64,000 nt of DNA from Escherichia phage vB_EcoM_SYGD1, in the sequence record MW883059; one strand, given 5' to 3'. Below, one piece after another: positions 48,690 to 53,488 of the stretch; position 1 is the first letter of the stretch, and every line of letters starts with the position of its first letter. The position numbers were made by a program, and so were the translations under genes. The notes beneath the pieces are model-generated. The model was not told the origin of the DNA, made no database searches, and saw nothing but the letters and a program-made list of their open reading frames with translations.

Positions 48690-48958
48690 TGTTTGTTGTT
48701 CACACTATTTATGAAAATGAAGGTAATACTACACGTGATTACGGTCACGTAAATCAATTTTTTAGATGCAATCCAGAATTCCGAGCTCAAAAAGACGAAC
48801 GAATTTTTAAAAAATGTGTAGAGCAAGGTTTCATTTACGTCAAGCACTGGATGCAAGGAAATAAAGTTAGAACTACATATCATAGGTCTTTAACTGAGCT
48901 TAATGATGAATTGATTTATAATAGAGCTGTAAACCAAACCTTGAAGGATGAGCAATGA
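48689..48958 (+). CDS. hypothetical protein 89 aa
   Basis: ORF coupled to ligase gene. Confidence 0.5.
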   Translation: MFVVHTIYENEGNTTRDYGHVNQFFRCNPEFRAQKDERIFKKCVEQGFIYVKHWMQGNKVRTTYHRSLTELNDELIYNRAVNQTLKDEQ

Positions 48959-50415
48959 TTCTTAAAATTCTGAATGAAATAGCATCTATTGGTTCAACTA
49001 AGCAGAAGCAAGCAATTCTTGAAAAGAATAAAGATAATGAATTGCTTAAACGAGTATATCGTCTGACTTATTCTCGTGGGTTACAGTATTATATCAAGAA
49101 ATGGCCTAAACCTGGTATTGCTACCCAGAGTTTTGGAATGCTGACCATTACCGATATGCTTGACTTCATTGAATTCACGTTAGCTACTCGGAAATTGACT
49201 GGAAATGCTGCAATTGAGGAATTAACTGGATATATCACTGATGGTAAAAAGGATGATGTTGAAGTTTTGCGTCGAGTGATGATGCGAGACCTTGAATGCG
49301 GTGCTTCAGTATCTATTGCAAACAAAGTTTGGCCAGGTTTAATTCCTGAACAACCTCAAATGCTAGCAAGTTCTTATGATGAAAAAGGCATTAGTAAGAA
49401 TATCAAATTTCCAGCCTTTGCACAGTTAAAAGCAGATGGAGCTCGGTGTTTTGCTGAAGTTCGAGGTGATGAATTAGATGATGTTCGTCTTTTATCGCGA
49501 GCTGGTAATGAATATCTAGGATTAGATCTTCTTAAGGAAGAATTAATCAAAATGACTGCTGAAGCCCGCCAGATTCATCCAGAAGGCGTGTTAATTGATG
49601 GCGAATTGGTATACCATGAGCAAGTTAAAAAGGAACCAGAAGGCCTAGATTTTCTTTTTGACGCTCCTGAAAATAGTAAAGTTAAAGACTTCGCAGAAGT
49701 AGCTGAATCTCGTACTGCTTCTAATGGAATCGCTAATAAATCTTTAAAGGGAACTATTTCAGAAAAAGAAGCCAAATGCATGAAGTTTCAGGTCTGGGAT
49801 TATGTTCCGTTAGTAGAAATATACGGTCTTCCGGCGTTTCGTTTAAAATATGATGTACGTTTTTCTAAACTAGAACAAATGACATCAGGATATGATAAAG
49901 TAATTTTAATTGAAAACCAGGTAGTAAATAACCTAGATGAAGCTAAGGTAATTTATAAAAAATATATTGACCAAGGTCTTGAAGGTATTATTCTCAAAAA
50001 TACCGATGGATTGTGGGAAAATGCTCGTTCAAAAAATCTCTATAAATTTAAAGAAGTAATTGATGTTGATTTAAAAATTGTAGGAATTTATCCTCACCGT
50101 AAAGACCCTACTAAAGCGGGTGGATTTATTCTTGAATCAGAGTGTGGAAAAATTAAAGTAAATGCAGGTTCAGGCTTAAAAGATAAAGCTGGTGTAAAAT
50201 CACATGAACTTGACCGTACTCGCATTATGGAAAACCAAAATTATTATATTGGAAAAATTCTAGAGTGCGAATGCAACGGTTGGTTAAAATCTGATGGCCG
50301 CACTGATTACGTTAAATTATTTCTTCCGATTGCGATTCGTTTACGTGAAGATAAAACTAAAGCTAATACATTCGAGGATGTATTTGGTGATTTTCATGAG
50401 GTAACTGGTCTATGA
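48955..50415 (+). CDS. 30: ATP-dependent DNA ligase (486 aa)
   Basis: Recognisable T4 DNA ligase sequence; adenylation site KADGAR. Confidence 0.95.
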   Translation: MILKILNEIASIGSTKQKQAILEKNKDNELLKRVYRLTYSRGLQYYIKKWPKPGIATQSFGMLTITDMLDFIEFTLATRKLTGNAAIEELTGYITDGKKDDVEVLRRVMMRDLECGASVSIANKVWPGLIPEQPQMLASSYDEKGISKNIKFPAFAQLKADGARCFAEVRGDELDDVRLLSRAGNEYLGLDLLKEELIKMTAEARQIHPEGVLIDGELVYHEQVKKEPEGLDFLFDAPENSKVKDFAEVAESRTASNGIANKSLKGTISEKEAKCMKFQVWDYVPLVEIYGLPAFRLKYDVRFSKLEQMTSGYDKVILIENQVVNNLDEAKVIYKKYIDQGLEGIILKNTDGLWENARSKNLYKFKEVIDVDLKIVGIYPHRKDPTKAGGFILESECGKIKVNAGSGLKDKAGVKSHELDRTRIMENQNYYIGKILECECNGWLKSDGRTDYVKLFLPIAIRLREDKTKANTFEDVFGDFHEVTGL

Positions 50416-50600
50416 AAGCTTACTTAGAAACAATTGTCGTGGCTCAAAAAGAAGGTGGAGATGTTTCTACTTCGGTATCACAAGTCATTCTCGAATTTGT
50501 AGATGCATATGCTTATAATAAATTTACAGAAACATTTGATGCCTACGAAAAAGGTCCAAAGTTTGAAATATATCGTACTCTCTTACCACTAGATTATTAA
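50412..50600 (+). CDS. hypothetical protein 62 aa
   Basis: ATGA-coupled ORF followed by hairpin. Confidence 0.45.
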   Translation: MKAYLETIVVAQKEGGDVSTSVSQVILEFVDAYAYNKFTETFDAYEKGPKFEIYRTLLPLDY

Positions 50601-50625
50601 AGGCCTTCGGGCCTTTAATTTTATA
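50599..50625 (+). terminator. hairpin/terminator
   Basis: AAAGGCC-TTCG-GGCCTTT followed by AATTTTAT. Confidence 0.55.
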
Positions 50626-50652
50626 AATAGAATAAACACTAGAGAGGATATG

Positions 50653-52746
50653 ATGGAACTTATTACAGAATTATTTGACGAAGATACTACTCTTCCGATT
50701 ACAAACTTAAATCCAAAGAAGAAAATACCGCAAATTTTTTCAGTTCATGTTGATGACGCAATTGAACAACCAGGCTTTCGTTTATGTACCTATACATCTG
50801 GAGGTGATACTAATCGCGATTTAAAAATGGGCGATAAAATGATGCATATTGTTCCTTTTACATTAACTGCTAAAGGTTCAATTGCTAAATTAAAAGGTCT
50901 CGGTCCAAGCCCAATTAATTACATCAATTCAGTTTTTACTGTTGCAATGCAGACGATGCGTCAGTATAAAATTGATGCATGTATGCTCCGTATTCTTAAG
51001 TCTAAAACTGCTGGTCAAGCTCGACAAATTCAAGTTATTGCTGATAGACTTATCCGTAGTCGTTCAGGTGGCAGATACGTCCTTCTTAAGGAACTCTGGG
51101 ATTACGATAAAAAGTATGCATATATTCTTATACATCGCAAAAATGTATCACTAGAAGACATTCCAGGAGTTCCGGAAATTAGTACAGAGCTCTTTACTAA
51201 AGTTGAATCGAAGGTCGGCGATGTTTATATCAATAAAGATACCGGAGCTCAAGTAACTAAAAATGAGGCAATTGCAGCATCTATTGCGCAAGAAAACGAT
51301 AAACGTTCTGACCAAGCTGTAATCGTTAAAGTTAAAATTTCCCGTAGAGCAATTGCACAAAGTCAGTCATTGGAATCTTCTAGATTTGAAAGTGAATTAT
51401 TCCAAAAGTATGAATCTACCGCAGCTAATTTCAATAAACCTGCTACCGCTCCTTTAATTCCCGAAGCGGAAGAAATGAAACTTGGAATTAATTCATTAGC
51501 TTCTAAAACCAAGGCAGCAAAAATTATTGCCGAAGGAACCGCAAATGAACTTCATTATGATTATAAATTCTTTTCAAAAAGTGAGGTTGATGAAGTTTCT
51601 GAAAAGATTAAAGATGTAATTCTTAATGCGATTAAAAATGAACCAACTACTTCAATAAAATGTTTAGAGAAATACGCAGCAGCCGTTAATCAACTCTTTG
51701 AAGAATATAAAGATAATTGGCTTGATAAACATAATAAAACTCGTAAAGGGCAGTCAGATGAAGTCTGGGAAGAAATAACTAAAAATTCCTGGAACGCAGC
51801 AAAAACTAAATTCCTCAAAAGAATGATTTATAGTTTTTCTGGAATTGGTGCAGGTCCAATGATTGATATTACTATTGCCCGTGATGGTTCTAAATATACT
51901 CCATCACAAAAGCGTGGCATTAGAGAGTATTGTGGTTCAGGATATACTGACATCAATAATCTTCTTTTAGGACGCTACAATCCAGAACGATATGATGTAA
52001 TGAGTGAAAAAGAAATTGAATCTGCTATAAATAACTTAGATTCAGCTTTTGAAAATGGTGACCGTATACCAGAAGGCATTACAGTTTATCGTGCTCAAAG
52101 TATGACTGCTCCTATATACGAAGCACTAGTTAAAAATAAAGTGTTCTATTTCAGAAATTTTGTATCTACTTCTTTAACTCCTATCATTTTTGGACGTTTT
52201 GGAATTACACATGCTGGTATCGGTCTTTTAGAACCAGAAGCTCGTAATGAATTAACAGTTGATAAAAATGAAGAAGGAATAACTATTAATCCAAACGAAA
52301 TAAGAGCGTATAAAGAAAATCCTGAATACGTTAAAGTTCAAATAGGATGGGCAATTGATGGAGCTCATAAAGTTAATGTTGTATATCCAGGAAGTCTCGG
52401 AATAGCAACTGAAGCTGAAGTTATTTTACCACGCGGATTGATGGTCAAAGTTAATAAAATAACTGATGCTTCTAATAATGACGGAACAACATCTAATAAT
52501 ACAAAACTCATTCAAGCTGAAGTTATGACTACGGAAGAACTCACCGAATCAGTAATTTATGACGGTGACCGTCTAATGGAAACTGGTGAAGTAGTTGCAA
52601 TGACAGATGATATTGAAATAGAAGACAGAGTTGACTTTGCATCATTTGTTTCATCAAATGTTAAACAGAAAGCAGAATCATCTCTCGGAATTATTGCGTC
52701 TTGCATAGATATTACAAACATGCCTTACAAGTTCGTTCAAGGATAA
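50653..52746 (+). CDS. alt: ADP-ribosyltransferase Alt (697 aa)
   Basis: Begins MELITELFDEDTTLPITNLNPKKKIPQIF as T4 Alt; ART-like R / S-T-S motifs (VYRAQS, FVSTSL). Confidence 0.9.
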   Translation: MELITELFDEDTTLPITNLNPKKKIPQIFSVHVDDAIEQPGFRLCTYTSGGDTNRDLKMGDKMMHIVPFTLTAKGSIAKLKGLGPSPINYINSVFTVAMQTMRQYKIDACMLRILKSKTAGQARQIQVIADRLIRSRSGGRYVLLKELWDYDKKYAYILIHRKNVSLEDIPGVPEISTELFTKVESKVGDVYINKDTGAQVTKNEAIAASIAQENDKRSDQAVIVKVKISRRAIAQSQSLESSRFESELFQKYESTAANFNKPATAPLIPEAEEMKLGINSLASKTKAAKIIAEGTANELHYDYKFFSKSEVDEVSEKIKDVILNAIKNEPTTSIKCLEKYAAAVNQLFEEYKDNWLDKHNKTRKGQSDEVWEEITKNSWNAAKTKFLKRMIYSFSGIGAGPMIDITIARDGSKYTPSQKRGIREYCGSGYTDINNLLLGRYNPERYDVMSEKEIESAINNLDSAFENGDRIPEGITVYRAQSMTAPIYEALVKNKVFYFRNFVSTSLTPIIFGRFGITHAGIGLLEPEARNELTVDKNEEGITINPNEIRAYKENPEYVKVQIGWAIDGAHKVNVVYPGSLGIATEAEVILPRGLMVKVNKITDASNNDGTTSNNTKLIQAEVMTTEELTESVIYDGDRLMETGEVVAMTDDIEIEDRVDFASFVSSNVKQKAESSLGIIASCIDITNMPYKFVQG

Positions 52747-52749
52747 ATC

Positions 52750-53136
52750 ATGGAACTTATTACAGAATTATTTGACGGCGCTTCGGCGCCGGTTGTTAAC
52801 TTAAATCCTAAGCATAAAATACCTCAAATTTTTGCTATTCAAGCAGGTGAAGAAAGCGTGCTTCCTGGATTTAGATTTTGTACATACACCTCTGGCGGTG
52901 ATACAAATAAAAACGTTAAGCCAGGCGATAAAATGATGCATATCGTAATGATAGGTGTTAATGAGAAACTATCATTAGTTAAACTTAAAAACTTGGGTGG
53001 AAATCCAATTGGTGTCATTAATGCGGTTTTTGATACTGCTCTTCAAACAATGAAACAGTATAAAATCGACGCATGCCTATTACGCGTACTAAAAAGTTCA
53101 AAATGTAGTTTACAAGTCCCTCGTGTTGTGTTATAG
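52750..53136 (+). CDS. truncated paralog of the Alt N-terminal domain (128 aa)
   Basis: Residues 1-116 align with the Alt N-terminus; last 8 codons are encoded by the promoter cassette. Confidence 0.6.
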   Translation: MELITELFDGASAPVVNLNPKHKIPQIFAIQAGEESVLPGFRFCTYTSGGDTNKNVKPGDKMMHIVMIGVNEKLSLVKLKNLGGNPIGVINAVFDTALQTMKQYKIDACLLRVLKSSKCSLQVPRVVL

Positions 53137-53161
53137 TAGATTTACTGACATAACATGAGGA
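53108..53161 (+). promoter_or_regulatory. early promoter cassette, copy B
   Basis: 53/54 nt identical to 39504-39557. Confidence 0.6.
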
Positions 53162-53168
53162 ACATAAA

Positions 53169-53459
53169 ATGAAATCTTCTTTGCGCTTTTTAGGTCAAGA
53201 ACTCGTAGTTGAAGGCGTTATTCCTGCTGATAACGCTTTTAATGAAGCTGTTTACGATGAATTTATCAAAATTTTTGGAACAGATAAAAAGTTCGGAATT
53301 TTTCCTTCTGAAAATTTTTCAAAGCCAGAACAGACTGAAAGCATTTTCCAAGGTGTAGTAACAGGTAAATTTGAGTCAGAAGCTCCGGTAAAAATTGAAG
53401 TTTATATTGAAGACAGTTTAGTTGCTTCAGTTGCTGCTTTTATTTCATTCCGTAAATAA
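53169..53459 (+). CDS. hypothetical protein 96 aa
   Basis: ORF downstream of cassette B, followed by bidirectional hairpin. Confidence 0.5.
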   Translation: MKSSLRFLGQELVVEGVIPADNAFNEAVYDEFIKIFGTDKKFGIFPSENFSKPEQTESIFQGVVTGKFESEAPVKIEVYIEDSLVASVAAFISFRK

Positions 53460-53462
53460 AAA

Positions 53463-53488
53463 TATGGGGACCTTTCGGTCCCCATTGT
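53463..53488. terminator. bidirectional hairpin terminator between convergent early and late units
   Basis: GGGGACC-TTTC-GGTCCCC; U-rich flank on the minus-strand side. Confidence 0.65.

Follow-up and report, generated by a model that had tools for sequence, protein, structure and literature searches.

The open reading frame between alt and alt.-3 of Escherichia phage vB_EcoM_SYGD1 is very probably a decaying deletion remnant of a second alt gene

Phage T4 packages Alt (gpAlt), a nicotinamide adenine dinucleotide (NAD):protein ADP-ribosyltransferase (ART). The protease gp21 takes six residues off Alt at ITE-6, and a second cleavage, at LTE-619, takes place close to the C-terminus (PMC5694885). 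T4 additionally carries alt.-1 and alt.-2, which Nolan et al. 2006 placed among the paralogous duplications of alt (PMC1524935). The T4T GenBank record states that alt.-1 and alt.-2 'together reflect a deletion and further frame shift in the second copy of gene alt', and the record of phage fPS-2 names its copy a 'putative pseudogene'. Here we analysed a 128-amino-acid open reading frame (ORF) that lies immediately downstream of alt in Escherichia phage vB_EcoM_SYGD1 (MW883059), a T4-like Tequatrovirus of which a segment of 64,000 nucleotides (nt), referred to below as the window, was examined. The original prediction, made from the window sequence, described this ORF as a tandem partial duplication of the N-terminal domain of Alt that could be a packaged decoy or a scaffold for a different cargo. 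We find that the remnant is already known, as T4 alt.-1/alt.-2. With high confidence, we interpret the 128-amino-acid ORF as what a deletion left of a complete second alt gene, produced by the same event as T4 alt.-1/alt.-2, now decaying and devoid of a selected function.

A deletion junction inside a second alt gene

BLASTP alignment of the ORF with the Alt protein of the window gave 73 identities over 117 positions (62% identity, 76% positives, one 1-residue gap, E-value 3e-49), bearing out the view that the ORF repeats the Alt N-terminus in tandem, right after alt. The Alt-like part comprises ORF residues 1-116 only, and nothing in Alt corresponds to residues 117-128 (SKCSLQVPRVVL). The four segments that had been singled out as shared (MELITELFD, PGFRxCTYTSGGDTN, GDKMMHIV and YKIDACxLRxLKS) were all found in the ORF. 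Its sequence is not low-complexity, and the pairwise alignment that had been proposed as a check extends over all of residues 1-116 rather than a short low-complexity stretch.

A complete second alt gene, which we call altB (685 amino acids, 2,058 nt), is present between alt and alt.-3 in phages Pinarejo, RB33, wV7, SH7, EO1, OES_C-1 and T6. Alignment of the window with Pinarejo altB (locus L006) gave two matches, one between window positions 52700-53097 and L006 6009-6406 with 97.2% nucleotide identity, the other between window positions 53089-53200 and L006 8097-8208, covering the altB 3´ end and intergenic sequence, with 95.5% identity. The two alignments share a 9-nt overlap, CTAAAAAGT. 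Six of the seven full-length genes examined, all intact 685-amino-acid ORFs, have this sequence at altB nucleotides 340 and 2039. This two-sided alignment overlapping by 9 nt therefore indicates the loss of exactly 1,699 base pairs (bp) between short direct repeats, and what had been read as a partial duplication of the Alt N-terminal domain is an internal deletion of a complete second alt gene. The window lacks exactly 1,699 of the 2,058 nt of altB, including the entire catalytic domain; the missing span starts with codon 117 and stops 20 nt short of the altB end, leaving the final 20 nt and stop codon in place. Division of 1,699 by three leaves a remainder (1,699 mod 3 = 1), so the reading frame beyond the junction is a new one: the last 12 codons cross the old altB stop and enter the putative alt.-3 early promoter, and translation would end at the TAG at 53134-53136. 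The parts of the ORF are as follows.

52750-53136, + strand: the 128-amino-acid ORF under study, with an ATG start, between alt and alt.-3
52750-53097, + strand: former altB codons 1-116, differing from Pinarejo AltB only by F111L
53089-53097, + strand: deletion junction with the one surviving copy of the 9-nt direct repeat CTAAAAAGT, placed by the two-sided altB alignment
53098-53136, + strand: 12 codons and a stop without Alt homology, read from the out-of-frame altB end and then from the intergenic promoter
53106-53108, + strand: ancestral altB stop TAG, now out of frame, placed by alignment with full-length altB 3´ ends

The 15 other remnant alleles compared, including T4T, N2 and HY03, all have exactly the junction of the window, and these alignments establish both the origin of the ORF and the position of the junction. 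In the phage collection, the deleted body of altB was present in 402-407 records and the deletion junction was spanned in 90, and therefore the two-gene state is common and the remnant state of T4 and the window is the minority. We propose that an ancestor would have carried two complete tandem alt genes (alt and altB) between DNA ligase/alt.1 and alt.-3, that recombination or replication slippage between the two CTAAAAAGT copies would have removed 1,699 bp of altB, and that the surviving 116 codons would then have run on in a new frame for 12 more codons to give the 128-amino-acid ORF. The window allele would represent an earlier, still open stage of the decay seen in T4.

Pfam placed ADPrib_exo_Tox (PF03496) in Alt residues 378-627; both Alt and AltB match this family, whereas the Pfam scan of the 128-amino-acid ORF matched no family, PF03496 included, so that the predicted lack of the catalytic part holds. 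The catalytic motifs R / S-T-S / E-x-E were seen in Alt and AltB only and are absent from the ORF. Among the PHROGs profiles, the ORF covers positions 2-120 of the 674-position Alt profile phrog_802 (E-value 5.5e-51) and also matches phrog_23015 (61 positions) and phrog_15247 (67 positions), the lengths and matched spans of which fit T4 Alt.-1 and Alt.-2.

Lesions and amino-acid constraint among remnant alleles

The extent of decay was surveyed in an alignment of 16 remnant alleles, comprising the window and 15 others. Two sites of inactivation have the following positions in the window.

52765, + strand: site of the GAA-to-TAA nonsense change at codon 6 (E6); the window has G and the codon is intact
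52905-52909, + strand: A5 run in codons 53-55, site of the -1 slip that gives the alt.-1/alt.-2 split; the window keeps A5

The codon-6 stop was present in 8 of the 16 alleles (HY03, ELT1, Lutter, ESh36, fPS-2, SG1, EC128 and 215Ecol030PP), and loss of one A from the A5 run was likewise seen in eight (T4T, HY03, ELT1, Lutter, F25, LH2, ESh36 and RPN226). In addition, HY03 has a duplication of 7 bp, F25 another -1 frameshift and LH2 an ATG-to-GTG change. Altogether 12/16 alleles carry a nonsense codon, a frameshift or both, through at least four kinds of lesion, and the four intact alleles are those of the window, N2, FL23 and AV121. Among the 60 best remnant records retrieved by tblastn, 44 were frameshift-split, and the codon-6 stop was found in 6 of the remaining 16 (four phages). 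Inactivation of the sister alleles is thus frequent. A programmed frameshift at the A run was considered and rejected; the run is merely shortened in the T4-type alleles, and nonsense alleles coexist with them.

We also noted that every one of the four possible combinations of the codon-6 stop and the A-run frameshift is represented (loci L001, L003 and L007-L018), and many synonymous polymorphisms are common to the remnants and full-length altB. These patterns would imply that alleles often recombine within the 350-bp stretch, or that the same sites were hit repeatedly by mutation or deletion.

Within codons 1-116, the seven full-length altB genes contained 27 synonymous variants and 1 non-synonymous variant, compared with 24 synonymous and 11 non-synonymous variants in the remnants. 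For variants specific to the remnants, that is, not found in the seven full-length genes (about 10 non-synonymous and 5 synonymous), the ratio of non-synonymous to synonymous substitution rates (dN/dS) was ~0.56, against 0.01 for full-length altB (Fisher p = 1.5e-5), and the remnant-specific value was no different from the neutral expectation (binomial p = 0.34). These counts are indicative of an amino-acid constraint that has relaxed or collapsed in the remnant. As expected of a pseudogene, an essential part of the gene has been lost, and relaxed selection and independent lesions are both found in orthologous alleles.

The retained fragment, its expression signals and alternative explanations

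The point at which the remnant breaks off was compared with the extent of conservation in Alt. Alt and AltB are 41% identical overall, with strong conservation over residues 1 to ~238 (the N-module), and the conservation of the N-module in the JS10 and fDHCT2 paralogues has the same extent, to ~238. An exhaustive HMMER search with Alt 1-240 returned 71 representative clusters, mostly of 600-710 amino acids, matched over nearly all of residues 1-238. The ART domain was present in 53/62 aligned sequences (60 homologues and two window-derived rows, the latter lacking the domain), and no alternative C-terminal domain on the Alt N-module was seen in this 62-sequence set; on both counts, the idea of a different cargo fused to the N-module was rejected. 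AlphaFold gave a model of full-length Alt with a predicted local distance difference test score (pLDDT) of 81 and a predicted template modeling score (pTM) of 0.75, and a model of residues 1-240 (pLDDT 90.6, pTM 0.86); both show an alpha/beta domain with strands at 39-47, 63-71 and 77-79, a helix at 87-104, a strand at 109-115, a helix at 123-137 and strands at 142-144 and 155-162, followed by a hairpin and then by helices that reach residue 238. The deletion begins immediately behind strand 109-115, with the loss of helix 123-137, strands 142-144 and 155-162 and all later parts. Residue 116 is accordingly placed by the models in mid-domain and not at a domain boundary, and the description of the retained residues as a domain does not agree with a conserved module that runs to ~238. 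The ORF does not hold a complete ~238-residue N-module, and we infer that its product would be an incomplete fold without a selected function. This product has a predicted mass of 14 kDa and a predicted isoelectric point of 9.2; peptides unique to it include LFDGASAPVVNLNPK, IPQIFAIQAGEESVLPGFR and NLGGNPIGVINAVFDTALQTMK, plus the tail SSKCSLQVPR.

No model of the local Pfam library matched the N-module, although PF26846 is listed for relatives in the protein database; sequence searches of the PDB with Alt and with the N-module profile found no relative of the N-module, and a literature search for a GNAT-like Alt domain returned nothing relevant. Protein homologue searches with the 128-amino-acid ORF and with Alt 1-240 returned 3 and 5 proteins, respectively, several of them 'partial' or from short contigs, a set unfit for length statistics. 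In distant T4-like lineages, we observed short ORFs (141-183 amino acids) that resemble the Alt N-terminus (P0063, P0064, P0067, P0069 and P0071), in which homology stops between ~105 and ~145 and gives way to unrelated or low-complexity sequence; some of these may be contig-end artefacts. RB49ORF183c and 44RRORF188c had been grouped with alt.-1/alt.-2 as paralogous duplications of alt (Nolan et al. 2006; PMC1524935). Truncated alt paralogues seem to arise repeatedly.

Candidate expression signals were found upstream of the remnant and inside its tail.

50622-50629, + strand: T4-type late promoter motif TATAAATA upstream of alt, found by motif search
52739-52743, + strand: Shine-Dalgarno-like AAGGA, 6 nt before the remnant ATG and overlapping the alt end, invariant in the T4T, N2 and HY03 alignment
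53109-53137, + strand: early-promoter-like TTTACA-17 nt-TATAGT with an upstream TG, the best-scoring site of the scan (10/12 matches), inside the remnant tail

By analogy to the T4 late-promoter consensus, TATAAATA at 50622 is the likely source of a late transcript that would also cover the remnant. A second perfect copy of TATAAATA lies inside alt, at 52026-52033. No terminator-like site was found on the + strand between alt and the ORF, which is probably co-transcribed with alt and, because the Shine-Dalgarno sequence and the ATG are intact, could be translated. Phages in which both genes are complete have AAGGA and ATG arranged in this way where alt meets altB. The search for a gp21 cleavage motif near the N-terminus, another suggestion of the original prediction, was positive: the first nine residues, MELITELFD, are identical to those of Alt and include ITE-6, with the predicted cut between MELITE and LFD. 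A whole-word search of T4 head reviews returned nothing on Alt packaging determinants. In T4, RNA of alt.-1/alt.-2 was detected and classed as middle, and Alt.-1, from the frameshifted allele, had zero intensity in 24 of the 24 columns of the infection proteome table (PMC9697503 supplement). With regard to the downstream signal, the annotation of phage Lutter has a promoter at the corresponding position, upstream of alt.-3, and the putative promoter at 53109-53137 fits the early expression of alt.-3 in T4, which is early at the RNA and protein levels with Alt.-3 abundant from early times (PMC9697503 supplement).

Several other explanations of the ORF were weighed against decay of a deletion remnant. 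That the first ~350 bp of alt were copied in tandem, so that the ORF was never a full gene, has next to no chance of being correct. The ORF looks this way when viewed without its relatives, but its protein is only ~62% identical to that of the resident alt, whereas its DNA is 97% identical to the 5´ end of the full-length paralogue in ~400 related genomes, and the last 20 nt and the stop of this paralogue persist past the junction; the two-sided alignment with full-length altB refutes a true partial duplication. A functional mini-protein, for which a 14-kDa Alt N-terminal fragment would be made late, be cut at ITE-6 and enter the prohead core, there to compete for the ~40 Alt sites, to serve as a decoy or to adapt another cargo, is very improbable. 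In 12/16 alleles the frame is broken, including that of T4, a fully competent phage; amino-acid constraint is relaxed, the fragment stops within the 238-residue module without about half of its secondary-structure elements, the tail is a reading-frame accident across a promoter, the C-terminal propeptide of Alt is cleaved too (PMC5694885), and Alt.-1 of T4 was undetected (PMC9697503 supplement). These facts outweigh the intact Shine-Dalgarno sequence, ATG and MELITELFD with ITE-6 (PMC5694885), the transcription suggested by the missing terminator and the middle-class T4 RNA, and the recurrence of truncated N-terminal Alt-like ORFs in other lineages. The decoy or cargo-scaffold role first suggested for the ORF is left without support, given that most sister alleles are inactivated, amino-acid constraint is gone and T4 Alt.-1 is at zero intensity. 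We give only a slim chance to a more specific version, limited to the intact alleles (window, N2, FL23 and AV121), in which a late, ITE-6-trimmed 14-kDa AltB fragment competes with Alt for the ~40 core sites and the lesions in sister alleles are the selected silencing of a mildly harmful competitor. If such a packaged competitor fragment did exist, the first 116 residues or fewer would suffice for Alt capsid targeting.

It is also doubtful, to a high degree, that the DNA was kept for a cis-acting role, such as spacing or signals for alt.-3 (promoter 53109-53137) or processing of alt mRNA at its 3´ end. The deletion left the promoter-like element precisely intact, the element is conserved in all alleles, and alt.-3 is strongly expressed early in T4, but this covers only the last ~30 nt, and 52750-53097 shows no indication of a signal and gains substitutions and indels freely. 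This role is compatible with the deletion-remnant explanation, not opposed to it. The case for a decaying remnant has its own weak points. The window allele itself has no inactivating lesion, and only 1/116 residues (F111L) differs from full-length AltB. A good ribosome-binding site, the N-terminal propeptide and the cleavage motif are kept, so a 14-kDa product with a cleavable propeptide is possible. The selection test is based on 15 remnant-specific variants, that is, few substitutions; this class was counted by eye against only 7 full-length genes, and recombination among alleles violates independence, making the variant counts indicative rather than exact. In the T4 proteome table, the allele behind the Alt.-1 entry is frameshifted rather than intact. 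Finally, the short Alt N-terminal ORFs of other T4-like lineages could reflect recurrent decay or some use for such fragments.

Gene neighbourhood and comparison with known alt systems

The genes around the remnant in the window are the following.

48955-50415: DNA ligase gp30, from the ORF listing
50412-50600: alt.1, from the ORF listing
50653-52746, + strand: alt, packaged ADP-ribosyltransferase, full length (697 amino acids), with ITE at residues 4-6, LTE at 630-632 and the ART domain at 378-627
53169-53459, + strand: alt.-3, 96 amino acids, DUF5498/PF17602 (Pfam E-value 1.4e-64), phrog_1739, a conserved neighbour outside the remnant that fixes synteny

The alt stop codon TAA occupies 52744-52746, and the ATG of the ORF begins 3 nt later. 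Beyond alt.-3 lie genes 54, 48 and 29 on the opposite strand. Gene order and DNA agree with T4, T2, the RB phages and a further several hundred Tequatrovirus records, with identities of 95-99%; when the alt gene of the window is compared with those of T2, RB5 and RB14, identity is 97-99%. Between the convergent alt.-3 and gene 54, a GC-rich hairpin with a 9-bp stem and T-runs on both strands (53464-53485) looks like a bidirectional terminator. Mutants of T4 with a C-terminal extension of alt.-3 (110 or 117 amino acids) escape CmdTAC, a defence system that ADP-ribosylates mRNA, and the extended alt.-3 acts in this escape by blocking CmdA degradation (PMC11618068). The HY03 record annotates no more of alt than 645 nt of the 3´ part (L003 3503-4147), and its upstream neighbours are unrelated minus-strand genes, not ligase/alt.1; either alt was truncated there by rearrangement, or the record is permuted or misassembled at this place.

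The number of alt copies varies among relatives. Three full-length copies are present in fDHCT2 (L005 5995-12255; a record without genus), two in JS10 (L004 4995-9206), Pinarejo (L006 4001-8116) and most Tequatrovirus genomes, and one plus the remnant in T4 and the window. The second copy goes by different labels: it is altb of the alta/altb pair in Dhakavirus JS10, and RB33 and T6 call it 'alt.-2'. Given the tandem full-length copies in JS10 and fDHCT2, the duplication of alt is old and complete. The paralogues retain the N-module and the ART core and diverge strongly in the middle, at about residues 240-410, a pattern that suggests, at the sequence level, that their targets may have diversified.

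The proper label for the ORF is remnant of the second alt paralogue (= T4 alt.-1/alt.-2) rather than new Alt-domain protein, and its significance beyond annotation is small. The locus is a clean, datable case of the loss of a tandem injected-effector paralogue, by deletion between 9-nt repeats and then by decay through nonsense and frameshift mutations. The laboratory reference T4 is also seen to be atypical, with a single alt gene against two in most of its relatives, and the intact alleles are a possible natural reagent for asking which part of Alt suffices for capsid targeting.

With Alt of T4, the ORF shares a paralogous N-terminus and an identical MELITELFD propeptide with ITE-6; unlike Alt, it has neither the catalytic domain nor the C-terminal LTE cleavage site and keeps only half of the conserved N-module, and packaging of its product has no support. 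Full-length altB is closer, its first 116 codons being orthologous to the remnant at 95-98.6% nucleotide identity, with the same position, translational coupling to alt, downstream promoter and alt.-3; only altB, however, has the rest of the N-module, the divergent middle, the ART domain (PF03496, E-value 3.4e-19; R / STS / ExE) and the C-terminal region. The closest system is T4 alt.-1/alt.-2 (UniProt P39495 / P39494), which has the same locus between alt and alt.-3, ~98% nucleotide identity and the same 1,699-bp junction, at which CTAAAAAGT is joined to TCAAAATGTAG. T4 has lost one A of the A5 run in codons 53-55, which splits the ORF into pieces of 61 and 67 amino acids, whereas the window, like N2, FL23 and AV121, retains A5 at 52905-52909 and one open frame of 128 amino acids.
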